Of a stretch of 64,000 nucleotides of DNA, positions 12,894 through 44,681 are shown piece by piece. The position numbers and the translations under genes were made by a program. Under the pieces are notes generated by a model. That model was not told where the DNA came from. It made no database searches and saw only the letters and a list, made by a program, of their open reading frames with translations. Numbering within the stretch: position 1 is the stretch's first letter; every line of letters starts with the position of its first letter. This stretch comes from an uncultured Elusimicrobia bacterium (GTDB lineage Bacteria; Elusimicrobiota; Elusimicrobia; Elusimicrobiales; UBA9959): the NCBI GenBank assembly GCA_903879915.1, contig CAIRNJ010000091.1, positions 95,718 to 159,717 on the forward strand. The letters run 5' to 3'.

Positions 12894-12904
12894 AGCGCAG
12901 CCTT

Positions 12905-14193: not shown

Positions 14194-14211
14194 AATAGTA
14201 TCCCTATTTCT

Positions 14212-15921: not shown

Positions 15922-16032
15922 AGTATTCCTTAGCATGCGGTTTTTAAAAGACTTAACGACGTAATTGAACCCCAATCGATTCTATTGCTTTTCAAGTTCA
16001 GGTGTCAACACGGGAAAGAACGGGGACAACGG

Positions 16033-18624: not shown

Positions 18625-18660
18625 CAGGCGCCCCGCTTTTGGCGGGGCGCCTGGTTTTTT
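18625..18660 (+). terminator. Rho-independent terminator
   Basis: CAGGCGCCCCGC-ttttg-GCGGGGCGCCTG followed by GTTTTTT. Confidence 0.8.
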
Positions 18661-18686
18661 CGCTGTCTTAAGTCCTGCGGAACAGG

Positions 18687-20312: not shown

Positions 20313-20345
20313 TTATGGTTTCCTTTACGTTGTCCGTGGCTAAGC

Positions 20346-22532
20346 TTAGTCCGTCAGCGTCGCGGGGTCCGCGAAGCGCGCCTGCATCTGGTTCACTTCG
20401 GCTATGTTGGCGTCGAAGCTGTTCTCCCGGTTGTTGAAGAACTGGTAGTTCTGCGTCACGTCGGTCTCGCCCTTAACCTTTTTATCGGTATGGACGTAGA
20501 CTTCCGCGGACACGTTCAGGGGGTCCACCAGCTGCACCAGCACCTTCAGGATCTCCTCGTAGGCCAGGTCGCTCCTGGTGCTGCCCGCCACCACTTTGGC
20601 CAGCTGCTCGGACTGCGCTTTCCAGCCGCCGGCGTGGCGCACCGTGAAGATATCGTGTATCACGTCGCTGGCGTCGTGCGCCAGCCCTCTCACCGTGGCC
20701 ATCGGGTCGTAGCCTTCCGTCACGGCCATCCCGCTCATGCGTTTCTCGGCGGTCTTCCAGTCGTAGTCCACCTGGCCTTTGTTGTTTATCGTGAACAGAT
20801 CGCCTACCCTGTCTACGATCTCGGGGACCACTTCGCGCATCACGTTCATGAACGCTTTCAGGATCTCCTGCGGGGGCGCCAGGATGATCTGCTGCACGCC
20901 GCCCTCGCTGATCAGCAGCTTTAAGTTCATCACGCCGGTCTTATAGAGCTTCATGCTGTGCGTCTCGGGGAAGATGGTGTCGGTGGGCAGCACGTTGGTG
21001 TTGTCCGTGCCGTTGCCTTTCATCCCCACGTAGCGCAGCACGCCGTTGGCGTTCTCCAGCATTTCGCGGGCCTGGCCGTCGCCGTGCTCCACAAAGCCCT
21101 CGTTGTGCTGGTACATCAGGGCGGGCAGGGTGGCTTTCCCGTCGGCGGTTTCTTTGTTCACCACGTAGATGGTCTTCTGCGTGTTGTGCTTCCTTTTGGT
21201 GCCGAGAATGGGCACGTTCAGGGTTTTGCCGTCCGAGGTCTTGGTGCGCTGCTGCACGTGCAGCGTGGTGCCGTTATTGTCCAGGGCCTGGTAGCGGTTG
21301 TAGGAGGTGGTCCAGCTGACGTCCTGCGAATGCGCTATGGGTATCTGCGCGTGCAGGTTGTGGCTGTGGCCGTGGTAGATGTCGCTGGCGGCGAAGTCGG
21401 GCTTCGCGCCTACTTCCTGGCTGGCGTGCGCGGCCGTGTCGGTCAGGTTGCCCAGGCCGCTGGCCGTTTCGTCGTTCTCGGCGAAGTCGTTGAAGTGCAG
21501 GCCCAGCTCCACGAAGCGCTTAAGGATGCTGAAGTCGCCCTGCAGGAATTTCTCCAGCGTCTCCATCTGTACGGGGTCCTTGGGGTTCAGGATGAACTCC
21601 ACCAGCAGCTTCTTGCCGAAGGTGCGGGAATAGCCTAAAGAAAGCTGGGCGGCTATCCACTTGTTCACCTGGCTGGCCCAGGTTTTGTTGATGAAGTTGG
21701 CCAGGATGTTATCCGCGGTCCACAGGCCGAGGTCGGACATGGGGATCTGCACGCTGGAGACGCCGGCGCTCACGCTCTTTACGGTAACGCGGTCCAGGCG
21801 GACGCGCAGCCGCAGGCGGTTCTCGTCCATGCGGTAAAGGGTTACCGAGGGCCTGCGCTCCTTGGTCTCGCCGGCCGAAATGGAAACGTTCACCATCTCG
21901 TTAAAGGTGGCGCCCATGCTGGCGCCGAAGCTGAGGCGCATGGAAAGGGGCAGCTTCCAGATCTCGCCTACTTCCATGGCGGACAGGCGCCTGGAGGTGG
22001 CGGGGATGACCGTTTTCATCTCATAAAGCTTCACCAGCGTGCCCAGCTCCTTACAGTACTTGTCGCTTTCCAGCGGGCGCACCACCTGCGATCTGCCCTC
22101 CAGCTGGCCGCCTATGCTTACGCCCAGCCCCTGCACGTTCGGTACCTGCAGGATCTCGTTGCCGAGGCCGACGGAAAGCTTTACGTTCACTTCGTCCACC
22201 AGGGCCAGTTTTTCATCAGGGAACCTTTTCAGGTAGCGGGCGAAGCCGCCGCCTATGCCCAGTACGTCCACCAGTTTAAGGTTCTGGTTAAGCTTCAGTT
22301 GGGCGGCTTTGCAGACGCTGTCCACGGTGCCGTCCTTGAGCTTTTCCCAGAACTGGTCGAAGTCGCTGGAGACCGGCGCGCCGGTAGAGACGGTCGGGAT
22401 CCTCGCGTCCTTATACTCTTCCAGCACCGAAGGAGGAACAGAACCTCTTAATGAATCCAGCGCGCTGGTTCCCGCGTAGGATACGTTCGCTCCGAACAGC
22501 ACCGCAGCCGCAGCGTATAGCGATCTTTTCAT
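20346..22532 (-). CDS. Secreted protein of unknown function, family A paralog 1 (728 aa)
   Basis: Signal module MKRSLYAAAAVLFGANVSYAGTSALDSLRG. It aligns along its length with 22730..24958 (e.g. RPSVTLYRMDENRLRLRVRLDRVTV is identical) and more distantly with 35952..38258. I recognised no domain. Confidence 0.8.
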   Translation of the reverse strand: MKRSLYAAAAVLFGANVSYAGTSALDSLRGSVPPSVLEEYKDARIPTVSTGAPVSSDFDQFWEKLKDGTVDSVCKAAQLKLNQNLKLVDVLGIGGGFARYLKRFPDEKLALVDEVNVKLSVGLGNEILQVPNVQGLGVSIGGQLEGRSQVVRPLESDKYCKELGTLVKLYEMKTVIPATSRRLSAMEVGEIWKLPLSMRLSFGASMGATFNEMVNVSISAGETKERRPSVTLYRMDENRLRLRVRLDRVTVKSVSAGVSSVQIPMSDLGLWTADNILANFINKTWASQVNKWIAAQLSLGYSRTFGKKLLVEFILNPKDPVQMETLEKFLQGDFSILKRFVELGLHFNDFAENDETASGLGNLTDTAAHASQEVGAKPDFAASDIYHGHSHNLHAQIPIAHSQDVSWTTSYNRYQALDNNGTTLHVQQRTKTSDGKTLNVPILGTKRKHNTQKTIYVVNKETADGKATLPALMYQHNEGFVEHGDGQAREMLENANGVLRYVGMKGNGTDNTNVLPTDTIFPETHSMKLYKTGVMNLKLLISEGGVQQIILAPPQEILKAFMNVMREVVPEIVDRVGDLFTINNKGQVDYDWKTAEKRMSGMAVTEGYDPMATVRGLAHDASDVIHDIFTVRHAGGWKAQSEQLAKVVAGSTRSDLAYEEILKVLVQLVDPLNVSAEVYVHTDKKVKGETDVTQNYQFFNNRENSFDANIAEVNQMQARFADPATLTD

Positions 22533-22715
22533 AGTTTTCTTTCTCTCCTTGATTTCCGTACTGTGTGCGTTACTCGTTCCGTCTTTGAAATCTCTTGTTA
22601 TAGTTTACCGCGTTCTGCGCCGGGCCGCCTGAGGCGGGGGAACCAGCGCGGCCCGCTTATTCGACCCAGGAGCGCCGGCTTATGGAAAACGCCTTTCGTT
22701 AAGCCGCCGGCTTAA
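22533..22715 (-). promoter_or_regulatory. Type-1 upstream cassette, copy C (A1 + PLD)
   Basis: P0 at 22699..22715, core at 22665..22682 (one mismatch), CCTGAGG at 22628..22634 and AGTTTACC at 22602..22609. Linkers are 16/30/18 nt. Confidence 0.75.
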
Positions 22716-22729
22716 CCCGCCCGCCGGTC

Positions 22730-24958
22730 CTAATCCGTCAGCACGGCCGGGTCAGCGAAGCGCGCGTGCATCTGGTTGACCTCCGCTATGCCGGCGTCGA
22801 AGCTGTTGTCCCGGCCGTTGAAGAACTGGTAGTTCCGCGTCACGTCCTCCTCTCCCTCCACCTGCTTGTCGGTATGCACGTAGACCTCGGCCGAGACGTT
22901 CAGCGGGTCTACCACCTGCACCACCACCTGAAGGAAATCCTCGTAGCTGAGGCCGCTGTCCGAGCTGCCGGCGGCTATTTCGGCGAGCTTCTCCGCCTGC
23001 GCCTTCCAGCCGGCGGCGCCGCGCGCCCCGGCCAGGCCGCGCAGGAATTCTTCCGCGCCGAGGGCGAGCTTTTTTACCACGTCCACCGGCTTTACGGGGT
23101 TCGCATAGTCGGCCGAAGTGCCGCCCACGCGCCGGGCGGCCTCCCGGGAGTCGTAGCGCACCCTGCCTTCCTCGCCGATATAGAACAGGCCCATCACCTT
23201 ATCCACTATGCCGGGCACGAACCGGCGCATCATGTTCAGGTACGCTTTCATCACGGCCTGCGCCGGGGCCAGCAGGATCTCCTGCAGGCCGCGCTCGTTT
23301 ATAAGCAGCTTGAAATTCATCACGGCGGTGTCATAATGTTTGAAGAAGCCGCCCGTATCGGGGAATATTTCGGCCGAGGGCAGCGTGTTCCCTTCGTTAG
23401 CCGCGCCGCCGTTCACGCCTACATAGCGCAGTACGCCGTTGGCCGTTTCCAGCATGTCGCGGGCCGTGCCGTCGCCCTGCCTCAGGAAGCCTTCGTTCTG
23501 CTGGTACATAAGCGCCGGCATGCTGGTTTTCCCGTCCAGCCCTTCCTTATTCACTACGTAGACGGTCTTCTGCGAATTGTATTTTACCTGCGAGCCCAGG
23601 AACGGCAGGTTCACCGACCGGCCGTCGGAATTGCGGGTGCGCTGCTGCACGTGCAGCGTTTCGCCCTGCCGGTCGGTGGACTGGTAGCGGTTATAGGAGG
23701 CGCTCCAACTGACGTCCTGGGCGTGCACGAAAGGCAGCCGCATATGCAGGTTATTCGAATGGCCGTGATAAATGTCGCTGCCCGCGAAGGACGGCTTCTC
23801 TCCTACGCCCCGGGCGGCCTGGCCGGCCGCGTCCGTTATCTCGCCCAGGCCGCCGGCCGTTTCGTCGTTTTCGGCGAAGTGGTTGAAATGCAGCCCCAGC
23901 TCTATGAAGCGCTTAAGGATGCTGAAGTCGCTCCGCATAAATTTCTCCAGCGCGGCCATCTGCCGCGCATCTTTGGGGTCCAGGATGAACTCCACCAGCA
24001 GCTTCTTGCCGAAATTCCTCGAATACCCGAAGGAGAGCTGCGCGGCCAGGAACTTGTTCACCTCGCCGGCCCAGGTCCTGTTGACGAAGCCGGCCAGCAC
24101 GTTGTCCGCGTTCCACAGGCCCAGGTCGGACAGGGGGAACTGCACGCCGGAGACGGAGGCGCCGGCGCTCTGCACCGTAACGCGGTCCAGGCGCACGCGC
24201 AGGCGGAGGCGGTTCTCGTCCATGCGGTAAAGCGTTACGGAGGGCCTGCGCTCCTTGCTTTCGCCGGCCGAGACGGAGACGCTTACCAGCTCGTTGAACG
24301 TGGTGCCCAGAGTGGCGCCGAAGCTGAAGCGCAGGCTCAGCGGCAGCTTCCAGATCTCGCCTATCTCCATAGCGGAGATGCGCCCGGCCGTGGCCGGGAT
24401 GGCGGTCTTCAGGTCATAAAGCTTTACGAGCGTGCCGAGTTCCCTGCAGTATTTGTCGCTGTCCAGCGGTCTGACCACCTGCGACCTGCCCTCCAGCCGG
24501 CCGCTGAGGCTGACGCCCAGGCCCTGTACGGCGGGGAGCTGCAGGATATCGTTGCCCAGCGTCGCCGAAAGATTTACATCCACCTCGTCCACCAGGGCCA
24601 GCTTCTGGCTGGGGGCCCTGAGCAGGTAGCGGCCCACCCCGCCGCCCACGCCCGGCACGCTGCCCAGCCTGACGTTCTCATTAAGCTTGAGCTGGGCCGC
24701 TTTGCAGACGTCGTCGATGGTGCCGTCCTTGAGCTTTTCCCAGAAATTGGCGAAGTCGCTGGTGACCGGGGCGCCCGGGGTAACCGTGGGCACGCCGAGG
24801 TTGGAGGACTCAACGCTGGCGCCGTCTACGCCGGCCGAGACCGAGCCGCTGAAAGTGGCGGGGCCGGCCGCCTTTAATGAAGCCAGCGCGCCGGTTCCCG
24901 CGCAGGCCAGGTTCGCCCCGAAGAACAACGCCGCCGCCGCGTAGAGAGTTCTTTTCAT
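22730..24958 (-). CDS. Secreted protein of unknown function, family A paralog 2 (742 aa)
   Basis: Signal module MKRTLYAAAALFFGANLACAGTGALASLKA. It is a close paralog of 20346..22532 and shares the C-terminus ARFADPAVLTD. Confidence 0.8.
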   Translation of the reverse strand: MKRTLYAAAALFFGANLACAGTGALASLKAAGPATFSGSVSAGVDGASVESSNLGVPTVTPGAPVTSDFANFWEKLKDGTIDDVCKAAQLKLNENVRLGSVPGVGGGVGRYLLRAPSQKLALVDEVDVNLSATLGNDILQLPAVQGLGVSLSGRLEGRSQVVRPLDSDKYCRELGTLVKLYDLKTAIPATAGRISAMEIGEIWKLPLSLRFSFGATLGTTFNELVSVSVSAGESKERRPSVTLYRMDENRLRLRVRLDRVTVQSAGASVSGVQFPLSDLGLWNADNVLAGFVNRTWAGEVNKFLAAQLSFGYSRNFGKKLLVEFILDPKDARQMAALEKFMRSDFSILKRFIELGLHFNHFAENDETAGGLGEITDAAGQAARGVGEKPSFAGSDIYHGHSNNLHMRLPFVHAQDVSWSASYNRYQSTDRQGETLHVQQRTRNSDGRSVNLPFLGSQVKYNSQKTVYVVNKEGLDGKTSMPALMYQQNEGFLRQGDGTARDMLETANGVLRYVGVNGGAANEGNTLPSAEIFPDTGGFFKHYDTAVMNFKLLINERGLQEILLAPAQAVMKAYLNMMRRFVPGIVDKVMGLFYIGEEGRVRYDSREAARRVGGTSADYANPVKPVDVVKKLALGAEEFLRGLAGARGAAGWKAQAEKLAEIAAGSSDSGLSYEDFLQVVVQVVDPLNVSAEVYVHTDKQVEGEEDVTRNYQFFNGRDNSFDAGIAEVNQMHARFADPAVLTD

Positions 24959-25140
24959 TTTTTTCGCCTTGCTTATCTGTTCCGTCCCGGGCGTGTGTTC
25001 CTAATCCGCTTTCTGCTTATAAGTAAAGTTTACTTCGCCCGCGGCCGGCTTCCCTGAGGCCGAAGGACCAGCGCTCGCCGCTTCTTCGACCCAGGAGCGG
25101 CGGCTTATAAAAAATGCTTTTAATTAAGCAGACGGCTTAA
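24959..25140 (-). promoter_or_regulatory. Type-1 upstream cassette, copy D (A2)
   Basis: P0 at 25124..25140, core at 25090..25107, CCTGAGG at 25053..25059 and AGTTTACT at 25027..25034. Linkers are 16/30/18 nt. Confidence 0.75.
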
Positions 25141-25237
25141 CAGGCGCGGGTGTTGCCGGGCGCCTGTCCGGGAGGGGGGATCATCCTATCGCCGGCCTGG
25201 GCGTGGTCAGCGGGGTATGGAGGTTTGTTCAGCGGCA

Positions 25238-25278
25238 GAAAAAATAAGCCGGGCGGGGCCCTGAGGCTCCGCCCGGTT
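25238..25278 (-). terminator. Rho-independent terminator of the L,D-transpeptidase gene
   Basis: A 14-bp stem AAGCCGGGCGGGGCC/GGCTCCGCCCGGTT with two G-U pairs. On the minus strand it is followed by TTATTTTTTCT. Confidence 0.7.
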
Positions 25279-25312
25279 CGTTAAGGCTTTGTTCCGGCTG
25301 GTTGCTTTGCTG

Positions 25313-26002
25313 TTATCTGGGCGGCGCGCCCTGCACGCAGATAACGGCATTCCCTTTCCCGCTGGCGCGCACCAGCGAGTAAACAGTGTCCGCGTCCGCC
25401 CGCGACAGGCGCACGCAGCCGTGGGAAGCCGGCTGGCCCAGCAGCGCTTCGTTGGCGGCGCTGGTTGCGTGCACCGCTATGTTCCCGTTGAAGAACATGC
25501 TGTGGGGCATGGGCGCGTTGTTATAAAGGCTGGAATAATGCATTTCCTCCATGGAGTCGGGGGAGTAGCATTTGCCGCTGCCTGGCGTGCGGTGGCCCGG
25601 GATGCCGGAGGAGATCTTGAATTCCTGGTTAAGGGTGGGCGATTTCACTATCAGGCGCTGGCGGTTGAGGTCCACGGTCAGGCGCACCGCGGCGTTCTGT
25701 ATCCTGAGCGGGTCCGTCACCAGGAAGCGCGTATAGTCGAACCCGAAAGCCGCGGCAACTTCGTCCGGGGTATGCTCGTCGATGAATTTAGCCGGGTCGG
25801 CCAGCGCCTCCGCGCGCAGGCTCCGGACCTCCGCGCTGTTGCCGTAAACCTGCGGCCCGGCCGCGGCGGGCGAGGCCGCGGGGGCCGGCGCGGCTTCTGA
25901 AGCCGTAAGGGCGGTCAGCTCCCTGCGTATGCTCTCGATGTCAGTTGAAAAACAGGGGGCGGCGTTCAGGGCCAGCAGTACCAGCGGCAGTAATATTTTC
26001 AT
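25313..26002 (-). CDS. L,D-transpeptidase (YkuD domain), secreted
   Basis: GQPASHGCVRLSRADADTVY carries the catalytic HGC motif. The signal peptide is MKILLPLVLLALNA. I chose the start at the ATG 9 nt after AAGGAG. The track start is 26026. Confidence 0.8.
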   Translation of the reverse strand: MKILLPLVLLALNAAPCFSTDIESIRRELTALTASEAAPAPAASPAAAGPQVYGNSAEVRSLRAEALADPAKFIDEHTPDEVAAAFGFDYTRFLVTDPLRIQNAAVRLTVDLNRQRLIVKSPTLNQEFKISSGIPGHRTPGSGKCYSPDSMEEMHYSSLYNNAPMPHSMFFNGNIAVHATSAANEALLGQPASHGCVRLSRADADTVYSLVRASGKGNAVICVQGAPPR

Positions 26003-26035
26003 GTTCATAGTCTCCTTGTATCTCATGGTCTCAGT

Positions 26036-27055
26036 TCAATTTGCGGCCGCGAATTCTCCGAGTTTTTGGCTCAGTTCGGAGAAATGCGGGTTGGTTTCGG
26101 GCCTGGTAACGGCGGCGTGGGCTATGCCCTCCGCCTGCGGGTAGCGCACGTACACGCTGCCGGACGCGGCCGGCAGCTCCGCCATGAACTCTGTAACGGC
26201 GGCGGGGCTGACCGTGGTATCCGCCTCGGATTCCACCGCGAAGACCGCGGTTCCGGCGGAGCTCAGCCTTTTCAGGATCTCGGCGCGCCCGTCATTGTTG
26301 TCGCCGATCAGCTCGCTGAGCTGGCAGACGCCGTTGATGGCCATCTTTGTATAGTTGTACGGGCTTACCTCGGCGGTTTCGGCAGGCTCCTTATAGTCGC
26401 CTTTGATCTTGGTAGTGAGCCACAGGGACTGGCAGCCCAGGAACACCGAGGTCTGCTCGCTTTCGTTGATAGCCAGGGCTGGGGAGAACAGGAAAAGCTT
26501 GTCCGCCTTAAGTCCCGGATGCCTGTGCAGGGCGTCCAAAGACAGGGCGCCGCCGGTAGAGAACCCGGCCAGGGAAACCCGCTCGCCCAGCCCGGCCGCT
26601 ATCTCCAGGCCGCGGTCTACTTCCGCCTGCCACTCCGCCTTGGTGGCGGTGGTAAGGTCCTCCGGTTTCGTGCCGTGGCCCGGCAGCAGGACGGAAACCA
26701 CATTGTAGCCCCGCTGGTACAGTGTTTCGCCGAGCTGGCGCATGAACCAGGGGGAGTCGGTCAGCCCGTGTATCATCAGCACGGTCTTGGGCGCCTTCGC
26801 GCCGTGCTCGAGCATAAAGGGCAGATTATCTTCGTTCTTGATGCCATTCAGCTTTGACTGCCTGTAATTTTTAAATTCGCCTATCGCGTTCGCGTAGCCG
26901 GCTACGTCCGCCGGCGCCGCCGCTGCGGCCGGCACGCCGAGCTGTATTTCCTGCATAGAAGCGCCCGCGCCGTTCTCGAGCTGCTCCAGCGGGGTGGCCG
27001 CGAAAGAAGGGGCCGCCGCGAACATAACCGCCAGGTAAATAGTTTTTTTGATCAT
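26036..27055 (-). CDS. Secreted alpha/beta-hydrolase (esterase/lysophospholipase-like)
   Basis: VLMIHGLTDSP, nucleophile elbow LAGFSTGGA (GxSxG), and signal peptide MIKKTIYLAVMFAAAPSFAA. Confidence 0.7.
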   Translation of the reverse strand: MIKKTIYLAVMFAAAPSFAATPLEQLENGAGASMQEIQLGVPAAAAAPADVAGYANAIGEFKNYRQSKLNGIKNEDNLPFMLEHGAKAPKTVLMIHGLTDSPWFMRQLGETLYQRGYNVVSVLLPGHGTKPEDLTTATKAEWQAEVDRGLEIAAGLGERVSLAGFSTGGALSLDALHRHPGLKADKLFLFSPALAINESEQTSVFLGCQSLWLTTKIKGDYKEPAETAEVSPYNYTKMAINGVCQLSELIGDNNDGRAEILKRLSSAGTAVFAVESEADTTVSPAAVTEFMAELPAASGSVYVRYPQAEGIAHAAVTRPETNPHFSELSQKLGEFAAAN

Positions 27056-27071
27056 ATTGTTCCTTAATATA

Positions 27072-27102
27072 GGGCCGGGCGCGTTTTGTGCGCGCCCGGC
27101 CC
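27072..27102 (-). terminator. Hairpin terminator downstream of FGE-domain gene 1
   Basis: GGGCCGGGCGCG-ttttgtg-CGCGCCCGGCCC, a perfect 12-bp stem. Confidence 0.55.
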
Positions 27103-27111
27103 CGGTTAAGT

Positions 27112-27993
27112 TTATTTCACCAGCCGGAAGCCTACGTAGAAGCTGCCCTGCTTCATGTAAATATAGCTGCGGAAGTCGGTGCGCAGGTATTCGTTGTCGC
27201 TGCTGTAGAAGGAATTACCGCGGATGACATTGTCGCCGTTGGCGGCGCCTTTAACCGCGCTGCCGTCGGCGGGAGCGCCGGCGTACGATTCCTTATATAT
27301 GTCCTGCGTTATCTGCCAGACGTTGCCGGCCATGTCGCACAGGCCCTGCTTGGTGTTGCCCGCGGGCTTGGAACAGACGGGCCCGGTGCCGTTGTTGCCG
27401 CCGCCTACGCCGTTCTCTACGCCGTCGTATACCGCCCTGGCGTGGGTAACGGGCTCGTTGCCCCAGGGATATTTATTGCTCTTGCCTTCGCTCCGGGCGG
27501 CGTATTCCCATTCGGCCTCGGTGGGGAGCCTCGCGCCGGCGAACTTCGCGTAGTCGTTCATTTGCTTCCCGTTCAGGCAGTTCATCGGGTATTTCTGGTC
27601 GTTGGGAGTATGCCAGTTGCAGTTGAAGCTGTAGTAAGTGACCGGGGGCGTCGTGCACTTCCCTGCGTTAACGCACTGCGCGTATTGCTCCACGGTTACC
27701 ACTGTTTTGGCCATTTTAAAGGTATTAATACTTACCTCGTGTACCGGCCTTGTGTTATTAGACCCCGGGGCGCTTTTCTCTGCCCCCATCTGGTACTTGC
27801 CCCCGTGAATGGTCACCCATTTTATCTGCGCCGCGCCGGCGGCGTAAGCCGCCACATCCGGGTTAAATATATCTCCGTCCGCGTAGGTGGACGCCTCGAT
27901 GTTCCAGGCTTTCACCGCCAGGTCCCCGAATTCAGCGGCAACTGCGTTGCCGGCCAAACCTAACATCGCTATCAGCATCATCGCTTTTTTCAT
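27112..27993 (-). CDS. Secreted FGE-sulfatase (SUMF1/EgtB-like) domain protein, paralog 1
   Basis: CDMAGNVWQITQD, NVIRGNSF and a C-terminal GFRLVK follow the FGE-sulfatase domain pattern. The signal peptide is MKKAMMLIAMLGLAGNAVAAE. Confidence 0.75.
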   Translation of the reverse strand: MKKAMMLIAMLGLAGNAVAAEFGDLAVKAWNIEASTYADGDIFNPDVAAYAAGAAQIKWVTIHGGKYQMGAEKSAPGSNNTRPVHEVSINTFKMAKTVVTVEQYAQCVNAGKCTTPPVTYYSFNCNWHTPNDQKYPMNCLNGKQMNDYAKFAGARLPTEAEWEYAARSEGKSNKYPWGNEPVTHARAVYDGVENGVGGGNNGTGPVCSKPAGNTKQGLCDMAGNVWQITQDIYKESYAGAPADGSAVKGAANGDNVIRGNSFYSSDNEYLRTDFRSYIYMKQGSFYVGFRLVK

Positions 27994-28173
27994 TTGTGGT
28001 TTCTCCTTGGCTATTCTGACCTCTGGGTTTTATTGCCGCCTTCAAAACCTCACACTATAAGTTTACCGAGTTTTCCGTCGTGTTTCCTGAGGCAGAAGAA
28101 CCAAGGCCGCGCGCTTATTTGACCCAGGAGAGCCGGCTTACAAATACTGCTTTTAATTAAGCCGCCGGCTTAA
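27994..28173 (-). promoter_or_regulatory. Type-1 upstream cassette, copy E (FGE-domain gene 1)
   Basis: P0 at 28157..28173, core at 28123..28140 (two mismatches), CCTGAGG at 28086..28092 and AGTTTACC at 28060..28067. Linkers are 16/30/18 nt and the leader is 66 nt. Confidence 0.75.
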
Positions 28174-28177
28174 CCGA

Positions 28178-28231
28178 AATAGAGTGACACACAACTTAAT
28201 TGCTGTCAATTAAGTTGTGTGTCACCCTATT
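28178..28231 (-). terminator. Long palindromic hairpin, family copy 1
   Basis: Perfect 19-bp arms GTGACACACAACTTAATTG (28184..28202) and CAATTAAGTTGTGTGTCAC (28207..28225) with loop CTGT. It lies downstream of the 28289 gene stop and has a T-rich flank on the minus strand. Confidence 0.6.
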
Positions 28232-28288
28232 TGCAGGCAGGCTTTAATATACGGCCGGGGGAACCGTATTTTGATCCCTGTCGTTCCC

Positions 28289-29131
28289 TCAGGCAGTATG
28301 CTGCACGCCATCCAGGCCGGTCCAGCTTAAACCGCCGTTCGCGTTCAGCGTGAAGTCTTTTGCGTAGCGGCTGATCAGCAGGCCGTTGAGGAAGAGGTCG
28401 TGATAGCTGTCGAGCGCGGCCGCATCTCCAGTCCTGGCGGCCACGCTGAACTTGAGCACGTTCGAACCTACCCGGCTGGTGGCGCCGCCGGTGTTCCTGT
28501 AGAGGGTGTTGAACGTGTCCAGCCAGGCGGTTGTTCCGGTGAACGCCGACACTTGATATTCCTTCACACCGGAACCGATCCGGTCCGTTTTTAGGCCCTC
28601 ATTCCTGTAGAGGTAGCCGTAAGTGTCCTTCCAGACCACCTGCCCGGTGAAGGCGTTTACATCCCGGCTCTCTGCGCAAGAGCCTATCCGCGAAGAGTTC
28701 CTGTAAAGGTATTTGTAATGGTCCGTCCAGACCACGTCCCCGGTGAAGGCAGCTATGCCGTATTCCTTTACCTCGCGGCCCAGCCTGTCCGCGTTCCTGT
28801 AAAGGTTGCCGGCCCTGTCGGTCCAGGCGGCGTCGTTGGTGCAGCCGGTCTTGAAGGCCACCGCTCCGCGGCCGAGCAGGGTATGCCCGTTATAGATGTC
28901 GCCTTTGTTGTCTATGAATACCGGCGGCTTATAGCAGGCGGACTGTGGCGGAGCCGGCTGCGGTACGTCCTGCTGGTGCGGCGTCTGGAAGGAATGCCCG
29001 ATATCGGCGGCGCCGCACTTTAAGAGCCCCGCGAAGCTCGCCGAGGGGCCATCAAACGCCGCCCCCGGAGCCGCGGCGTAAGCGCCCGTAGCTGCCGCGA
29101 GCGCGGCAATGATAATCAATATTTTTTTCAT
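28289..29131 (-). CDS. Secreted repeat protein (about five ~38-aa repeats, LYRN...G..V..F.V..FTG...W.D)
   Basis: Signal peptide MKKILIIIAALAAATGAYAA. The repeated units NLYRNADRLGREVKEYGIAAFTGDVVWTD, YLYRNSSRIGSCAESRDVNAFTGQVVWKD and others suggest a beta-propeller-like architecture. Confidence 0.6.
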   Translation of the reverse strand: MKKILIIIAALAAATGAYAAAPGAAFDGPSASFAGLLKCGAADIGHSFQTPHQQDVPQPAPPQSACYKPPVFIDNKGDIYNGHTLLGRGAVAFKTGCTNDAAWTDRAGNLYRNADRLGREVKEYGIAAFTGDVVWTDHYKYLYRNSSRIGSCAESRDVNAFTGQVVWKDTYGYLYRNEGLKTDRIGSGVKEYQVSAFTGTTAWLDTFNTLYRNTGGATSRVGSNVLKFSVAARTGDAAALDSYHDLFLNGLLISRYAKDFTLNANGGLSWTGLDGVQHTA

Positions 29132-29313
29132 TTTGTACCCCTTATCCGGAAAGCATACGGCGAACTTTGCCGCTTGATCAAAGTTTACAGTATCTCCGGA
29201 GTGTTCCGATTGAGGCGAAGGGTAAGCGCGGCGAGGTTATTCGGACTATAACGGGTGAGACGCCACGGAGGGCGTTTTAGGAACAATTATTGTTGCCAAG
29301 GCGCGGGCGCCCG

Positions 29314-30150
29314 TCAGAAAGACTTAACTTTGCGCATGCGCAGCTTTATCAGGTAGAAGCCGGTATTCTGGCCGGCCGAATGCGTGGCGTAGGCGTTGGC
29401 GCCGTCCATGGCCTGCGCCAGCTGCAGCCGGAAGTTGCTCATGGCGCCCTCTTCGGCGCGCACCAGCTCCAGCCGCTCGAAGAATTCCGGCCCGCCGGCT
29501 TTTTCCAGGTAGCCGTTGATGGTTTCCAGCTGGGCGCCCATGCCCTCGAGCCGGCCGGGGTAGGTGAAAAATTTGCCCTGGTGGCGGCACTTGTATTTGC
29601 CAGCCGGGGTTTTAAGGAGCAGGCCGGCTTTCTTCAGCGACTCAAGCGCCTTCGCGACGGCTTTGGGCTCCAGCTCGAGTTTCCCGGCCAGTTCCTCCGG
29701 GGACCAGGTGCCCCCGTCGCTGCACAGCGCTTCGGCGCACCAGTAGACGGCCTCGCTGGCGGCCATAGCGGTGAATTCCTCCGGGCTTAAATGCACCGAG
29801 GAATGGGCCTTCATCCAGGTCATGGCGCCGGGCCCGGCGCCGGCCGCGGACTGGCCGGAAAAAAGCGGGGCTAGTATGTAATCCGCGCACCTGCCGCCGC
29901 CCAGCGAGTCGCGCAGGTAGCTCATAAGCAGCTCCCTGGCCTCGGCCTGCGTCGGCAGCAGCCGCAGGGCCAGCATGATCCGCTCCAGCCACTCGGGCTT
30001 GGGGACGGACGCTCCCTTCTCGATGCGCATGTAGTGGACGAAGGTGAAAGCGAAGTGCTTTCTGCCGCCGTTGCGGTGGTAGAACTTGTAGGCGGTGTCG
30101 AAGCCCGCGGCCGACCTGGCCTTTATAAGGTTTTCGTGGAAACTCAGCAT
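29314..30150 (-). CDS. Putative HTH/winged-helix transcription regulator, paralog R1 (TIGR02147/DUF4423-like)
   Basis: The N-terminus LIKARSAAGFDTAYKFYHRNGGRKHFAFTFVHYMRIEKG and the central PEELAGKLELEPKAVAKALESLKKAGLL are collinear with 41850..42710, 42723..43604 and 50896..51765. Confidence 0.55.
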   Translation of the reverse strand: MLSFHENLIKARSAAGFDTAYKFYHRNGGRKHFAFTFVHYMRIEKGASVPKPEWLERIMLALRLLPTQAEARELLMSYLRDSLGGGRCADYILAPLFSGQSAAGAGPGAMTWMKAHSSVHLSPEEFTAMAASEAVYWCAEALCSDGGTWSPEELAGKLELEPKAVAKALESLKKAGLLLKTPAGKYKCRHQGKFFTYPGRLEGMGAQLETINGYLEKAGGPEFFERLELVRAEEGAMSNFRLQLAQAMDGANAYATHSAGQNTGFYLIKLRMRKVKSF

Positions 30151-30233
30151 TTGCTCTCCTTGACCATAGGCTAGTTATTATAGCGGTAGGGCGCGGTTTT
30201 AGCAACTTTCAGGCGGGAAATAAGGTGGGGAAA

Positions 30234-30283
30234 TAAAGTGACACAGAACTTAATTGTTGCCAATTAAGTTCTGTGTCACTTTA
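30234..30283 (-). terminator. Long palindromic hairpin, family copy 2
   Basis: Arms GTGACACAGAACTTAATTG (30238..30256) and CAATTAAGTTCTGTGTCAC (30261..30279) with loop TTGC. It matches copy 1 except for one position, which is changed in both arms. It lies right after the S8 stop and ~85 nt upstream of the R1 start. Confidence 0.6.
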
Positions 30284-30284
30284 A

Positions 30285-31436: not shown

Positions 31437-31439
31437 GCT

Positions 31440-32471
31440 TTAGTTCGCCCCGAGCGCGGGCTCGCTCTTAAGGTTCCAGATGCCGGACGCCACGGACAGG
31501 TTGCATTTATCGCCGGGCTGGCATACTTTCAGCTGCCGGCAATTGCTGGCTCCGTCGTGGAAATGGTCCGCGTGGCCGCTGGACGTTATCCCCAGCACCT
31601 CGCCGGTGGCGGAGTCGAACACCGGGGAGCCGGAGTCGCCGCCGAAAGTGTCCATTTCGGAATCGAAAGCCTGCCCGCTGGGTTTTATATGCAGGATAGG
31701 CGCGGAGTCTTTGAATTTCAGCGGCAGCCCGTTGGAATTCCCGATGTTCACCAGCCCGGTCCCCACGGCCGGCTGTGAGTTCAGGGCCAGCTTTAAAGGC
31801 TTGCGCCCCTCTACCGGGCGGTCCAGCTGCAGGATGGCGTAGTCTATGTCCCCGAAATTCTGGTAGTTCCGGGCTACTATCTTTTTGCACTGGTAGACCC
31901 TGTCCGCACCGACCTTCGTGTAATTCTTGTCGCTCTGGCTCGCCAGCGCGTATTCGAAGACCCATTTGAAATTATCGCAGTCTTCCTGGGCCTTTATACA
32001 ATGCGCCGCGGTCACCAGCAGGTCGGGCTTTACCAGGAACCCCGTGCAGCTGGGAACGGTGATCTGGTCCGCGAAACGATTGCCGGGGCATTCCTTCGCG
32101 CTCAGTGGATCGCCATGCAGCTCCCAGGAAGAGCCGCGGTCTGTGATGTGATCTACGGAAACCTTGCCGGCCAGGGAACGGCCGATCTCCCGCCAGCGGT
32201 CCGGAACGGAGAAAAGCTCCTGCCGGTCGTCCTTCCCGAAAATAGCCCGGGAAGGCAGCACGGCGGCGGAGCTGACAGTTTTCGGCCGCATCTCTTCCCT
32301 GAGGAGGGTCATGATAGAAGACAGGTCCACGCCCTGGGCTTCCGGAGCCTGAACGGCCGCTGCGGCCGGGAAGCCCGCGCTGCCCGCCCGCGGTTGTTCC
32401 AAGCCGTAGGCTAGGTCAAATTTCGCCCAAGCAAACATTAACACGATGGTTAGCGCTATGAGTATTTTCAT
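31440..32471 (-). CDS. Secreted trypsin-like serine peptidase (S1)
   Basis: LVTAAHCI and GGDSGSPVF are present. There is a 3-nt gap to the downstream S8 gene, so they form an operon. Confidence 0.85.
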   Translation of the reverse strand: MKILIALTIVLMFAWAKFDLAYGLEQPRAGSAGFPAAAAVQAPEAQGVDLSSIMTLLREEMRPKTVSSAAVLPSRAIFGKDDRQELFSVPDRWREIGRSLAGKVSVDHITDRGSSWELHGDPLSAKECPGNRFADQITVPSCTGFLVKPDLLVTAAHCIKAQEDCDNFKWVFEYALASQSDKNYTKVGADRVYQCKKIVARNYQNFGDIDYAILQLDRPVEGRKPLKLALNSQPAVGTGLVNIGNSNGLPLKFKDSAPILHIKPSGQAFDSEMDTFGGDSGSPVFDSATGEVLGITSSGHADHFHDGASNCRQLKVCQPGDKCNLSVASGIWNLKSEPALGAN

Positions 32472-32497
32472 TTTTTGTGCCCTTATAGTAGTGGTAT

Positions 32498-32535
32498 AAA
32501 GGACCCGGGCGCGCCCTGCGGCGGCCGGGCCCTTT
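32498..32535 (-). terminator. Possible terminator hairpin downstream of the His/Gly/Pro-rich gene
   Basis: AAAGGACCCGGG...CCGGGCCCTTT is an imperfect stem with a 16-nt loop. The U-tract on the minus strand is weak. Confidence 0.35.
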
Positions 32536-32550
32536 ATTTTACGTCCCTGT

Positions 32551-33666
32551 CTACTGAATGTCCAACATCTCTACGCTGCTGGTCTCCGGGCCTACCGAGC
32601 CCTGGCTGCGGCGCGCGAACTTAACGGTAAGTACGTACTTGCCGGGGTTCGGGTTGTCGGCGAGCCTTATGCTGTACAGCGAGGCCACGTCGTAAGTGCC
32701 GTGCACGGTTATCTGCTGCAGCCCGTTGGGGGACACGTTCCCGCCGGCGGGAAGGACCATAGCCTCTACCGTGAGGTCTATCTGCGAGCCCTTGTAGTAG
32801 GCAGCTTTAGCGTCGGAGAAGGTCAGATAGAACGACCTGCCGATATAGCCGGAGGAGTCCAGCGCGATCTCTTTATACACCGGAGCAGGCTGAGGCGGTA
32901 CGGGGTTGTAGGGCTCGGGGGTAGGCGGATAATACGGCTCGGGCTGGGGCGGCATAGGAGGCTGCGGATGCCACGGCGCAGGCTGCGGATGCCATGGGCC
33001 GGGGCCGTCATGATAACCAGGGCCGTCGTGGTTGCCGGGACCGGGCTGCGGATGCCACGGCTCAGGCTGCGGGCCGGGATGGTTGTCGTGACCGGGGCCG
33101 TCGTGGTTGCCGGGGCCGGGCTGAGGTCCGGGCTGGGGATGCCACGGCTCAGGCTGCGGGCCGGGATGATTATCATGGCCGGGGCCGTCGTGATTGCCGG
33201 GGCCGGGCTGGGGCTGCGGATGCCAAGGTCCAGGCTGGGGACCGGGCTGAGGGCCGGGGCCGTTGTGATGACCGGGGCCGTCGTGGTTGCCGGGGCCGTC
33301 GTGGTTGCCGGGGCCGGGTTCCGGGTGCCAGGGCTGGGGTTCCGGCACAGGCGGAGGGTTAAAGCCGCCGTGATCGCCGCCGGGCTGCGGGTTAAAACCG
33401 CCGTGGTCGCCGCCGGGCTGCTGGCCGCCGCCGTGGTCTCCGCCGCCGTGGTTGCCGCCAGGCTGCTGGCCGCCGCCGTGGTCGCCGAAGCCGGGGCCGG
33501 GCTGGTTGCCGCCGCCGTGGCCGCCGCCGTGGTCACCCGGTCCTTTCAAAGTATCAACGGTTTTCAGCACTTCTCCTACGCTCTTATCGAAGTCTGCTTC
33601 CGCCGCGAACGCCCTCCCGGAAAGCGAGAGCAGCATTGCTGCCGCAACTAAAGATTTCGTTTTCAT
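32551..33666 (-). CDS. Secreted His/Gly/Pro-rich low-complexity protein with a structured C-terminal domain
   Basis: Signal peptide MKTKSLVAAAMLLSLSGRAFAAE. About 220 aa consist of GDHGGG, GPGNHDGPG and PWHPQPGP motifs, followed by a ~110-aa beta-rich C-terminus. Confidence 0.7.
   Translation of the reverse strand: MKTKSLVAAAMLLSLSGRAFAAEADFDKSVGEVLKTVDTLKGPGDHGGGHGGGNQPGPGFGDHGGGQQPGGNHGGGDHGGGQQPGGDHGGFNPQPGGDHGGFNPPPVPEPQPWHPEPGPGNHDGPGNHDGPGHHNGPGPQPGPQPGPWHPQPQPGPGNHDGPGHDNHPGPQPEPWHPQPGPQPGPGNHDGPGHDNHPGPQPEPWHPQPGPGNHDGPGYHDGPGPWHPQPAPWHPQPPMPPQPEPYYPPTPEPYNPVPPQPAPVYKEIALDSSGYIGRSFYLTFSDAKAAYYKGSQIDLTVEAMVLPAGGNVSPNGLQQITVHGTYDVASLYSIRLADNPNPGKYVLTVKFARRSQGSVGPETSSVEMLDIQ
32883..33537 (-). 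repeat. Coding low-complexity/tandem repeat region (GGNCCNGG-rich)
   Basis: Repeated DNA units such as ggccggggccgtcgtggttgcc encode GPGNHDGPG/PWHPQPGP. Confidence 0.7.
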
Positions 33667-33827
33667 AATCCTCCCAGTAATTTTGGCGCATAATGCCTTA
33701 CGCCATTAAAACTATTTTATGGAATCCTGCGAGTCCCCAATAGAGGCGTTGGGCCCAGCGCCTTTTTGTTTATTGACCCAGGAGGAACGGCTTATTAAAA
33801 GCGGCTTTAGTTAAGCATCCGGCTTAA
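33667..33827 (-). promoter_or_regulatory. Type-1 upstream cassette, copy F (His/Gly/Pro-rich gene); divergent
   Basis: P0 at 33811..33827 (TTAAGC-N5-GCTTAA), core at 33777..33794 (diverged), ATAGAGG at 33740..33746 in place of CCTGAGG, and ATTTTATG at 33714..33721 (TAAAAT hexamer). Linkers are still 16/30/18 nt. Confidence 0.6.
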
Positions 33828-33840
33828 CAGAATAGCGGCT

Positions 33841-33877
33841 GAAAAAATGAACAACCCCGCCGGAGAGCGGGGTTGTT
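33841..33877 (-). terminator. Rho-independent terminator of the APP1-like gene / operon G
   Basis: AACAACCCCGC-cggaga-GCGGGGTTGTT, with CATTTTTTC following on the minus strand. Confidence 0.7.
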
Positions 33878-33912
33878 GAAGGATAATCTCAGGTTCCGAC
33901 TTTTTGGGGGGG

Positions 33913-34779
33913 TTACTTGTTCCGGCACAGATCGTTCACGTTCGCTTTAACTTGTTCGTAAATCCCGCTTATAGCCGAAGCGTCCGGGGTTTGGGCCAGA
34001 ATTTTCTGGTTGAGTTTCGGCCAGGCTTTGAAGGTCGCGCACTCCATAAATTCAGGGACCACCTGTTTTGCCAGTTCTCTGTTGCCGCTGTCATACTCTA
34101 TTTCTCCGAGGATCCTCGTCAGGGCGGCTTCGTCCAGCCAGCCGTGGTTGGCGAACTGTACCGCCAGGTCCGCGGAGGTTAAAAACGGAACGTGCCCGGC
34201 CGGGATCTCAAGCCCGTTCGCGCCCGGTTTGTAGACGTGGTGTATGAAAGAATATACCCGGGCGGCGCCGTTCTGGCCTTCAACATGTTTCATAAGCTCG
34301 CCGTAAGCGTAGATATCCTGCTCGCCGTTATCACCGACAAGTATCATCAGCTCGGGTTTTTCCCGTTCATAGATCCTTATAAGTTCGCGGGCTTTGAACT
34401 CTCCGGGGCCTTCCGTCATCGGGTCCCTTCCGCTCACTATGGAATCCTTTATGTCTCCCCGCTGCGGCGGAAAACCGGACATCCTTAAAAAATCTATCCC
34501 TATCTCGTCAAGTTCTCCCGGCGCCGCTGTCAGGTATTCCGTCTTGCCGGCGGCCGCGAAAACGGCCGCGCAGCCGTTATAAAGTATGCTCATGCCGGCA
34601 AATTCATTGTCGGTGCCGAACGCGTGCCCGGCCGTGTTCATGCTGTTTATGCCGGATATTTTAATGGTGTCGTCGATGTCCGAGATCAGCAGGTTCCGGG
34701 CCGCGAACAGGTCCGTCCCCGGCACGGAGAGCATTGCTGTAAAACTTAAACAGCCGGCCAATTTTTTTATATGGTTCAT
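33913..34779 (-). CDS. Secreted APP1-like (DUF2183) phosphatidate/lipid phosphatase
   Basis: LLISDIDDTIK (DxDxT) and LVGDNGEQDIYAY match the App1 catalytic domain pattern. A signal peptide is present. Confidence 0.6.
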   Translation of the reverse strand: MNHIKKLAGCLSFTAMLSVPGTDLFAARNLLISDIDDTIKISGINSMNTAGHAFGTDNEFAGMSILYNGCAAVFAAAGKTEYLTAAPGELDEIGIDFLRMSGFPPQRGDIKDSIVSGRDPMTEGPGEFKARELIRIYEREKPELMILVGDNGEQDIYAYGELMKHVEGQNGAARVYSFIHHVYKPGANGLEIPAGHVPFLTSADLAVQFANHGWLDEAALTRILGEIEYDSGNRELAKQVVPEFMECATFKAWPKLNQKILAQTPDASAISGIYEQVKANVNDLCRNK

Positions 34780-34791
34780 CGTTCGTCCTTT

Positions 34792-35880
34792 TTAATTCGC
34801 CGGCAGGGTGGAGCAGTCAAAATAGCCCTGCCCTGTGCTCCTGCCGGTTACCAGGAATTCTTCCATTACCGCGGCCAGCGGGCGGGACCTGAGGCCGGAA
34901 TACTCGTCCAGCGCCAGCTCGCCGAAGCTGGTAAGGTAAGCCTGCGCGGCCATGGCCGCCAGCTCTGGCGCCCTGCCTACGCCCGGGAACCTGTCGTCGC
35001 CCTTAAAATATATGCTGTCCCGGGGGTCGGCGTTGAAGCCGAAGAGATGGACACAGGCTTTGGCCTCGGCCGGCGGCAGAAGTTCGTTGTCGTAGTAATA
35101 GCACAGGTCTTCTATAACGCGCGGGTCGGCGGCCGACCGCTGCGTGTGCGCGGGGGAAAACGAATCCTCTATGGTGTGCGCCGCCACGCCCAGCGAGAAA
35201 TACATCAGCTCGTAAGCGCGCAAAGCCTCGCTTTTGTCGGGGGTATTATTGCCTCTCAGCCATTCCTTCCAGGCGCTGTCCGTGAACCTTCCGATCAGAC
35301 TTACGGCTTTTTCGCAGGAGCGGCGGGCGGAGTCAAGTTTTACCGGAGGCTTCCCGCCGGTTTCAATGAACGCTCTTAAAAAATGAACCGGCATCCCCAT
35401 GCCGTTCGGGTTGAAGTTCTCGTACGTGGACTCGGCCAGCTCTACGCCCAGCTGCTCGTTCCAGATCCGGGTGTAAAGCCTGAACAGCGCGGATTTGGAG
35501 GTTCCATGTATGTTAAGGCGCTGCGGATAATCGGCCGCCGTGTTGCCCGACTGCAGCCTGTTCGAAGTAAGAAGGGTAGAATGTTTGATGTCGTCGACCT
35601 GAAAAAAACCGCCTTTCAGGGTTTCCGGGTTCAGCTCGAAATCTTCCGGGAGTATCCCGGGCGCGGCCGGTTTCTGGCCAAGCCCCTTAAGCCAGGCCCC
35701 GATGGCCGCGCTTTGAGTGCCGCGCAGCGCGCCGTTCGCGCCTTCTATGGCGGATCTTGTCAGTACGCTGTGCGAATCGAAGATATACTTTCCGAACTGG
35801 TCCCAGCTGCGGGCTACGGACGGAGCGGTGAGGAGGCAGGCTAAGGTTAGAATTCCCGCTGCTATCTTCTGTTTGGTCAT
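34792..35880 (-). CDS. Secreted zinc-dependent phospholipase C-like protein
   Basis: The mature N-terminus WDQFGKYIFDSH has Trp1 and His~11 as in clostridial alpha-toxin. LGVAAHTIEDSFSPAH matches LG.A.H...D...P.H of Zn-PLC. Confidence 0.6.
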   Translation of the reverse strand: MTKQKIAAGILTLACLLTAPSVARSWDQFGKYIFDSHSVLTRSAIEGANGALRGTQSAAIGAWLKGLGQKPAAPGILPEDFELNPETLKGGFFQVDDIKHSTLLTSNRLQSGNTAADYPQRLNIHGTSKSALFRLYTRIWNEQLGVELAESTYENFNPNGMGMPVHFLRAFIETGGKPPVKLDSARRSCEKAVSLIGRFTDSAWKEWLRGNNTPDKSEALRAYELMYFSLGVAAHTIEDSFSPAHTQRSAADPRVIEDLCYYYDNELLPPAEAKACVHLFGFNADPRDSIYFKGDDRFPGVGRAPELAAMAAQAYLTSFGELALDEYSGLRSRPLAAVMEEFLVTGRSTGQGYFDCSTLPAN

Positions 35881-35951
35881 TTTCAGTGTTCTCCCGGCCT
35901 TTAAATGCTGCCGCGCCCGGTGTAATAACCGGGCGCGGTCCGTTCTTCTGT

Positions 35952-44627: not shown

Positions 44628-44681
44628 TTCCGATTCTCCTTAACCTGTCCAGACCGTGGAGGAATAGTCGCCTGCCGCCTG

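Follow-up and report, generated by a model that had tools for sequence, protein, structure and literature searches.

The window analysed here is a stretch of 64,000 nucleotides of contig CAIRNJ010000091.1 (positions 95,718 to 159,717 of the forward strand) from an uncultured Elusimicrobia bacterium, and all coordinates given below are positions in this window. Three paralogous genes, A1 (20346..22532), A2 (22730..24958) and A3 (35952..38258), are located on its minus strand, and the proteins that they encode are referred to as family A. An original prediction, made from the letters of the DNA, described the three as secreted paralogs with no recognizable domain, each behind its own cassette. 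Family A is a small family, found so far solely in Elusimicrobiota, and by every test run it lies outside any known family or fold, the fold comparison being that of Foldseek against PDB and BFVD.

Three collinear genes for exported proteins

The open reading frames (ORFs) of A1, A2 and A3 and their translations of 728, 742 and 768 amino acids (aa) agree exactly with the original prediction. A1 is composed of a predicted Sec signal (about aa 1-20), a variable linker and a structured body of about 670 aa. A3 is a member of a deep subfamily, and its internal Met29 may be the true start. The alignment of the three proteins with MAFFT is collinear from end to end, as had been claimed, with aa identities of 66% between A1 and A2 and 32% between A1 and A3. 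The RPSVTLYRMDENRLRLRVRLDRVTV block is identical in A1 and A2 and recognizable in A3, the GKKLLVEFIL...PKDP and LKVLVQLVDPLNVSAEVYVHTDK blocks are present in A1 and A2 and partly in A3, and the conserved C-termini read ARFADPA(T/V)LTD in A1 and A2 and HFDDPAVNTD in A3. An N-terminal Sec-type signal is predicted for each of the three, so that alignment, signals and domain searches together support a paralogous family of exported proteins. A1, for which an AlphaFold2 model was made, is a 100% match to the database homolog P0001; A2 is identical to P0007, a sequence found on 13 contigs.

The absence of a recognizable domain was confirmed in several libraries. Searches of A1-A3 against Pfam, NCBIfam, PHROGs and PADLOC gave no match near the cut-off, the best scores being 11-21 bits compared to cut-offs of 27-575. 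Ten divergent or extended members likewise have no match in Pfam, and a search of PDB sequences with the family profile gave 0 matches at E <= 10.

A family confined so far to Elusimicrobiota

Among 5.8 billion proteins, a word-indexed search identified 86 homologs, 35-100% identical and nearly all full length (about 710-790 aa). All named entries among them are annotated as "hypothetical protein" of Elusimicrobiota metagenome-assembled genomes (MAGs), and a Pfam domain is found in none. In an exhaustive search by hidden Markov model (HMM), a profile of 54 sequences was compared to 1.84 billion cluster representatives, giving 180 matches at E <= 1e-3 and 122 at E <= 1e-30. Almost all of the 180 share one architecture, and the few N-terminal extensions contain no Pfam domains. 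A scan of GTDB with one genome per species revealed 46 loci, all in Elusimicrobia(ota) or in unlabelled MAGs, with up to three family loci per MAG and frequent tandem copies. For ten very divergent members the sole named source is again Elusimicrobia. Every named source of family members is in Elusimicrobiota, and none is a cultured organism.

Family A was searched for in plasmids, phages and IMG/VR contigs and is absent from them, by which carriage on mobile elements is rejected. A search of the literature library used here found nothing on family A, TIGR02147 or surface or lytic proteins of Elusimicrobiota.

Export signals and conserved residues

In 188 of 204 non-identical members, the N-terminus has a hydrophobic segment and, after it, a signal-peptidase I site of the AxA type. 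A lipobox-like string is found in just 11 of the 204 and in neither A1 nor A3; with cleavage sites of the AxA type, the assignment as bacterial lipoproteins was rejected. A hydrophobicity check past the signal peptide found no segment sufficient for a transmembrane helix. Family members are shown by these predictions to be Sec-exported, soluble and non-lipoprotein. The signal peptide is followed by a variable linker rich in Gly, Ser and Ala. It is noted that in many members (e.g. L022 6373-8700, L018 2715-5045 and L017 4988-7276) the mature N-terminus starts with a short [SD]FDG motif, which precedes the Gly/Ser-rich linker of variable length and is not present in A1-A3.

The body of about 670 residues has a strikingly constant length. 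Among 54 sequences of 35-80% identity its conservation is uniform, and insertions or deletions are confined to three internal spots near residues 280, 525 and 605. Internal duplications or repeats were looked for in the protein and none was found. Across the 204 members, which extend down to 20% identity, the positions conserved in at least 93% are C74, R99, D113, G146, V150, R152, C160, K173, P177, R182, M186, G189, E190, W192, P195, R241, R243, R245, E312, several Gly and Pro residues, Q667 and the terminal D728. The two cysteines are conserved in 99% of members, and C74 and C160 probably form an extracytoplasmic disulfide. R99, D113, R152, K173, R182, E190, W192, R241/R243/R245 and E312 form a charged patch that includes a Trp and spans adjacent strands of the N-terminal half, and that is kept down to 20% identity. 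The arginines R241-x-R243-x-R245 (codons at 21798..21812 of A1, minus strand) are 96-97% conserved and lie on a 22-residue β-strand; with Leu or Val between them, the three face the same side of the sheet, and they are referred to as the Arg ladder.

Predicted fold

AlphaFold2 models were obtained for A1 (pLDDT 76.8, pTM 0.77) and A3 (pLDDT 74.7, pTM 0.76). Both have the same order of elements, with about 16 β-strands, many of them 16-22 residues long, and about 200 helical residues interleaved. The predicted fold is shown in these models to consist of very long antiparallel β-hairpins interleaved with helices, in a single length-constrained unit with no solved match. The hairpin 109-153 is Gly-rich and amphipathic: one of its faces is hydrophobic, in runs of 5 and 3, and the other is polar. 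Its tip is flexible, of low confidence and Gly-rich in both models. The hairpin is a candidate for membrane insertion, though one packed on a hydrophobic core would look alike.

The structural comparison proposed in the original prediction gave no convincing match in PDB or BFVD. With A1 as the query, Foldseek found a single PDB match at E <= 1e-3, FecA (E=9.6e-4, probability 0.97, template modelling (TM) score 0.19-0.21, root mean square deviation (rmsd) 20 Å), and almost all of the top 50 PDB matches are outer-membrane barrels. The list for A3 is similar, with nothing at E <= 1e-3 and FecA at E=1.1e-2. For both models the TM scores are <=0.21 when normalized to the query and <=0.35 when normalized to the target, at rmsd values of 11-32 Å. 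Against BFVD there was no match. The A3 list also includes low-probability matches to the lipid-transfer proteins vitellogenin and ApoB, which like family A have large amphipathic β-sheets with helical segments. Vitellogenin (9enr_A) is at rank 21 for A1 and at rank 2 for A3 (E=9.9e-3); with a probability <=0.06 and TM <0.1, neither protein is a credible fold match. The aerolysin/ETX-MTX2, leukocidin/hemolysin and MACPF/CDC families have no Pfam match in family A, and none is among the top 50 Foldseek PDB matches of either model.

The barrel matches raise the question of whether family A could be an integral outer-membrane β-barrel acting as a porin, an uptake channel or a translocator for the neighbouring enzymes. 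The top matches of both models and the long antiparallel hairpins are in its favour, and the Arg ladder is reminiscent of anion-selective porins. The likeness to FecA, RagA and the autotransporter β-domains is limited to these very long hairpins and to the best local 3Di similarity. Unlike in these barrels, a hydrophobic face long enough for a membrane (about 5 alternate residues) is seen on only 3 of the 16 predicted strands, and both faces are polar in the five-strand meander at 380-484. Instead of an aromatic β-signal, the chain ends with a helix (708-720) followed by DPxxLTD, the last residue being Asp in 95% of members. Long helical insertions are found at both ends of the sheet, hypervariable loops are absent, and there is no global superposition on solved barrels, the TM values of 0.1-0.35 being accompanied by rmsd >11 Å. 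An integral barrel is therefore largely excluded, and we regard it as extremely improbable.

Another reading is that of a new enzyme whose substrate would be an anionic polymer, for instance a glycan (acidic or sulfated), teichoic-acid-like material or phospholipid. The cleft would be the concave face of the large β-sheet, with E190, E312 and D113 as catalytic acids and the Arg, Lys and Trp residues binding the substrate. The very constant length and uniform conservation are as in enzymes; down to 20% identity there is no change at E190, W192, R99 and M186 and hardly any at D113 and E312. The genes are also co-regulated with those of GH2, polysaccharide deacetylase, FGE-sulfatase-like proteins and other hydrolases (see below), and several deep paralogs per genome would resemble diversified, substrate-specific hydrolases. 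However, no catalytic family is matched in Pfam, NCBIfam or PDB, the set of residues conserved at 93% contains no His, Ser or Cys nucleophile or metal-binding motif, and the conserved terminal Asp is left unexplained. An enzyme is possible, if doubtful, in our assessment.

The C-terminal tail and the Arg ladder

The signature F720-A-D-P-A-T-L-T-D728 of A1 is encoded at 20349..20375 (minus strand), and its terminal Asp is 95% conserved. The original prediction had considered the C-terminus as a secretion or anchoring signal. Conservation of the exact last residue and the moderate confidence with which the tail is modelled would fit the sorting or anchoring signal of a dedicated secretion pathway. 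However, in about 800 kb of Elusimicrobiota sequence only family members end in F-x-DP-x3-[TS]D; proteins outside the family, co-regulated secreted enzymes included, do not. Searches of Pfam and NCBIfam also gave no match to known C-terminal sorting signals (the type IX secretion system C-terminal domain, PEP-CTERM, LPXTG and GlyGly-CTERM). In addition, the terminal Asp co-varies with the internal arginines. The RxRxR motif is intact in 182 and broken in 9 members with the terminal Asp, compared to 4 and 8 of those without it. The association has an odds ratio of 40 (Fisher p=1.6e-7), a value not corrected for shared ancestry, and some of the odd ends may be gene-calling errors. A sorting signal is thus largely excluded, with only a very slim chance of being correct; the motif is a family signature and not a shared sorting tag.

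The restriction of the motif to the family and the co-variation of Asp and ladder point to an intramolecular or functional role of the C-terminus. Considering that the terminal Asp and the intact ladder co-vary, we infer that the tail may act in concert with the Arg patch, on which it could dock as a latch, rather than as a generic sorting tag.

The shared upstream cassette

Each family gene has its own cassette, as the original prediction had it. On the minus strand, the copy of A1 is at 22601..22716, with the palindrome TTAAGCCGGCGGCTTAA, a conserved GC-rich block and GGTAAACT, and matches the cassette model at 101 bits; the copies of A2 (25026..25141) and A3 (38327..38442) match at 94.2 and 95.6 bits. 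The cassette is about 118 bp long and has the consensus TTAAGCCGGCGGCTTAA, about 22 nt, AAGCCGCCGCTCCTGGGCCG ... CGCTGGTTC ... GGCCTCAGG, about 20 nt, GGTAAACT, its end being about 70-135 nt upstream of the start codon. The palindrome has the form TTAAGCC-N3-GGCTTAA. The core 20-mer occurs 13 times in the window, where 0.05 occurrences are expected, and 12 of these are genuine intergenic copies. Besides those of the family genes, minus-strand copies are located at 3994-4107, 7579-7693, 28059-28174, 33713-33828, 41540-41655, 45309-45424, 46333-46448 and 49173-49288, and a lone plus-strand copy at 51785-51900.

The cassette is best read, from its sequence and position, as a promoter plus operator. 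A structured RNA was considered and rejected: the palindrome is the only structure given by RNAalifold (covariation term -0.3 kcal/mol), and there was no match in Rfam. A cassette common to the family across the phylum was also rejected, because the cassette model is found only in the closest relatives of the window (L009, L010, L011, L019 and L044), in four of which (L009, L010, L011 and L044) it precedes family genes as well.

The cassette-headed units with family genes are A1 followed by a PLD-family gene, A2 alone, and A3 followed by a PLC-like and an APP1-like gene. Since the A1 cassette comes directly after A2, A2 is monocistronic. Each family copy has a strong AAGGAG ribosome-binding site in addition to its own promoter. 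The other units comprise an FGE-sulfatase-like gene followed by those of an α/β-hydrolase and a YkuD protein; a gene for a 371-aa protein without annotation followed by trypsin-like and subtilase genes; and three genes for unannotated proteins (40220-41479, 39425-40195 and 38683-39393). Further cassette-headed genes encode a GH2 β-galactosidase, another α/β-hydrolase, a second FGE-like protein and more unannotated proteins.

Four paralogous helix-turn-helix (HTH) proteins of about 280-290 aa are encoded at 29314-30150 (minus), 41850-42710 (plus), 42723-43604 (plus) and 50896-51765 (minus), interspersed among the cassette-headed operons. They have weak winged-helix HTH and DUF4423 matches, and their assignment to TIGR02147 was rejected for lack of an NCBIfam match. 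By their sequence and location these proteins are candidate regulators of the palindrome. Also observed were two perfect inverted repeats, nearly identical to each other, 44-48 bp long and with arms of 20 bp, at 28181-28228 (GTGACACA..AACTTAATTG), just upstream of the FGE cassette, and at 30237-30280 (CAATTAAGTT..TGTGTCAC), between the S8 protease gene and a DUF4423-like gene.

In how it would work, though not by membership, the arrangement resembles the PlcR regulon of Bacillus cereus, in which a palindromic box lies upstream of many operons for secreted phospholipases, proteases and membrane-active proteins. In the window TTAAGCC-N3-GGCTTAA is found in 12 cassettes, as a putative operator. 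Unlike the PlcR regulon, the putative one described here belongs to another phylum, with another box and a far longer cassette of about 118 bp, and no PlcR or PapR homolog was identified.

Divergence of the family A region

The original prediction ascribed long near-identical DNA stretches to A1 and A2. Their DNA is only 75% identical over 2 kb, and the longest exact match is 33 bp. The two genes differ by about 0.61 synonymous substitutions per site (dS). In the neighbour-joining tree, A1 is placed with P0002 of another MAG and A2 with a clade of genes from several other MAGs; A3 is part of a separate, deep subfamily. A1 and A2 thus have closer orthologs of their own in other genomes. The proposal of a recent duplication was rejected on the basis of the DNA identity, the dS and the separate placement in the tree, and with it falls that of a recombination substrate. 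The duplication of A1 and A2 is old.

Comparison to the sister lineage L009 gives 95% identity across 9.5 kb, up to the PAP2 gene. Past PAP2 the identity is 76-77% across a single family gene, and the PLD, second family copy, YkuD and α/β-hydrolase genes of the window are missing from L009. When window positions 18658-28175 are set against L009 3486-8305, the family A region is 76-83% identical and differs in gene content. For the flanking genes (CorA and PAP2) dS is 0.13-0.18, the nonsynonymous counterpart dN is 0.013-0.016 and dN/dS is about 0.1, compared to a dS of 0.65, a dN of 0.18 and a dN/dS of 0.28 for the family gene. As the synonymous sites of the family gene are also far more diverged, its alleles or paralogs are older than the split of the genomes, which indicates replacement or differential retention and not hypermutation in place. 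The family A region is a hot spot of replacement or differential loss. Within the population of the window itself the family gene is stable, with identical A2 on the 13 contigs mentioned above.

Divergence of this kind could also be expected of a structural surface or envelope protein, an S-layer-like coat or outer-membrane scaffold anchored by the Arg patch to lipopolysaccharide (LPS) or another anionic polymer, in which case the differences between lineages would reflect pressure from phages or grazers. Such a protein would fit a phylum-restricted family of one architecture that often stands alone in conserved synteny with housekeeping genes, has a promoter and strong ribosome-binding site for each copy, is commonly found as tandem paralogs and is far more diverged than its flanks between sister genomes. 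However, the variation is spread evenly and not placed in exposed loops, there are almost no insertions or deletions, and the conservation is uniform instead of bipartite. Neither SLH nor any other known anchoring domain is found with Pfam, the gene is limited to part of the phylum (46 GTDB loci and 180 clusters overall), and identical alleles on 13 contigs of one population show no rapid variation within it. We consider a surface protein unlikely.

Neighbouring genes and the lipase link

The PLD-family phospholipase gene (18687..20312, minus strand) follows A1, as had been predicted; it lies 33 nt downstream, shares a transcription unit with A1, and is itself followed by a terminator-like hairpin at 18625-18653. 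Its product has two HKD/PLDc_2 domains (Pfam PLDc_2, E=2.1e-50). The operon of A3 was predicted to continue with PLC-like and APP1-like enzymes, and the gene order and the APP1 assignment hold. The APP1-like gene (33913..34779, minus strand), with the catalytic domain of phosphatidate phosphatase (APP1_cat, E=1.1e-17), lies 12 nt downstream of the PLC-like gene. The PLC-like gene (34792..35880, minus strand), 71 nt downstream of A3, matches Zn_dep_PLPC below the Pfam cut-off (E=1.3e-3, 19.1 bits compared to 26.8), and its product has no match among PDB sequences. The label is based on this match and on an H-x3-D-x3-P-x-H motif, which we take to be that of Zn-dependent phospholipases C, and is not secure.

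The repeated pairing with phospholipid-degrading enzymes, from which the original prediction derived a lipid role, stands for this genome, where the genes are adjacent and share a cassette. It does not extend to the family. PLD adjoins a family member in 2 of 44 GTDB loci (L011 and L049), and the PLC-like and APP1 genes of the window recur in 1 of 44 (L010). The phospholipase link is confined to the closest relatives of the window, and the lipid role as first suggested finds support in this lineage only. A compact order of family gene, PLD, trypsin and S8 is present in L007/L011 (a second genome). No same-strand neighbour lies within 250 bp for 14 of 53 members, and no conserved operon partner was found, each Pfam family being present in at most 2 of the 60 putative partners. 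A convergent carbamoyltransferase-like gene is the neighbour seen most often, owing to plain synteny.

It should be mentioned that an unannotated secreted family of 374-470 aa adjoins family A in five loci (L009 4655-5905, L010 2160-3284, L017 7624-9036, L044 14117-15241 and L047 5962-7086). Its proteins carry the motif CHLTQDQAxPxHAAN and an Ig-like region at the C-terminus, and have no Pfam or PDB match. A count of 6 of 45 loci for recurrence of the PLC-like protein, obtained with a mixed HMM, was withdrawn, as this five-locus neighbour is not demonstrably related to it (hhalign probability 1.8%).

Further genes at 56197-61026 (plus) and 46459-47565 (minus) encode a glutaminase-like protein, an FG-GAP repeat protein, a papain-like C1 protease, a clostripain C11 protease and a polysaccharide deacetylase. 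With the cassette units, the C1 and C11 cysteine proteases and the polysaccharide deacetylase taken together, this region of the window is an island of secreted degradative enzymes. Exported proteins with no Pfam or NCBIfam match, cassette-driven or neighbouring, are encoded at 38683-41479, 32551-33666, 28289-29131 and 43695-45272 (all minus) and at 53043-55672 (plus); their sizes are 419, 256, 236, 371, 280, 310, 196, 455 and 361 aa, and orthologs of those of 419 and 256 aa are found in L011 and L044. Elsewhere in the window, three consecutive large ORFs of 980, 406 and 574 aa with no Pfam match (9951-15936, minus) are part of the block that is 95% conserved with L009, and a tmRNA gene (Rfam RF00023, 135.7 bits) is at 8756-9107 (plus).

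A possible role at membranes and its meaning

A membrane or lipid role is still our leading guess, on grounds other than those of the original prediction, namely the Arg-rich patch and the co-regulation with secreted hydrolases. We propose, tentatively and with a probability of about 0.3, that family A is an anion-binding protein targeted to membranes or envelopes, possibly lytic, within a degradative secretome. The proposal is based on the Arg ladder, the Gly-rich hairpin 109-153, the co-regulation with lipases and proteases, and the analogy to the PlcR regulon and to gene clusters of Vibrio. The Arg ladder would bind an anionic, probably phosphate-bearing ligand, such as the head groups of phospholipids or LPS, and the C-terminal ...L-T-D-COOH tail could dock on the ladder as a latch, a contact suggested by co-variation alone. 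The shared cassette would place the three old paralogs in a regulon of about 12 secreted-hydrolase operons, with PLD, PLC-like, APP1-like, trypsin-like, S8, α/β-hydrolase, GH2 and deacetylase enzymes. The family protein would most likely be the partner of these enzymes, binding to membranes or envelopes, possibly lysing them, and so making the substrates accessible.

The Vibrio counterpart is HlyA/VCC of Vibrio cholerae, a large secreted pro-cytolysin clustered with lipase, phospholipase and protease genes; aerolysin-type toxins have C-terminal pro-peptides. Family A is like the pro-cytolysins in its size of about 740 aa, its predicted Sec signal, its PLD, PLC-like and protease neighbours, its Gly-rich amphipathic hairpin and its possible latch tail. 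Unlike them, it has no leukocidin, aerolysin, MACPF or CDC similarity in sequence or fold, and no lectin domains.

Several observations weigh against a role at membranes. Searches of Pfam, and of PDB with Foldseek, reveal no likeness to families of pore-forming toxins or lipid-binding proteins. The distant members P0086 and P0034 stand alone among housekeeping genes, and most others likewise are without nearby hydrolases; the link to a degradative secretome may be a lineage-specific recruitment and not the ancestral role. The association between Asp and ladder, the sole basis for the contact of tail and arginines, is uncorrected for phylogeny. An enzyme would be just as compatible with the uniform conservation and the invariant Glu and Asp residues, and the enzyme and surface-protein explanations account for parts of the data equally well. 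A more specific version of the membrane role is distinctly improbable: that family A would be a secreted membrane-attack protein of new fold, pore-forming or lipid-extracting, latched inactive by its C-terminal Asp tail and deployed together with phospholipases and proteases by free-living Elusimicrobiota, from one regulon under control of the palindrome, to lyse other cells.

A phylum-specific family with confident models and no curated or solved relative is rare, and is a usual source of new biochemistry. The value of family A is limited for now, as its members come only from uncultured organisms and its function is read from sequence; the invariant Arg/Glu/Trp patch, the probable disulfide pair, the co-varying terminal Asp and a lipase and protease secretome apparently under one operator are handles for experiments. 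Family A would still define a new family if its members were enzymes or coat proteins. The membrane-attack version, if true, would be genomic evidence of a lytic or predatory life in a phylum whose known representatives are mainly fermentative gut isolates and MAGs. If the protein is found to bind or break membranes, the view of how free-living Elusimicrobiota acquire nutrients would have to be revised.

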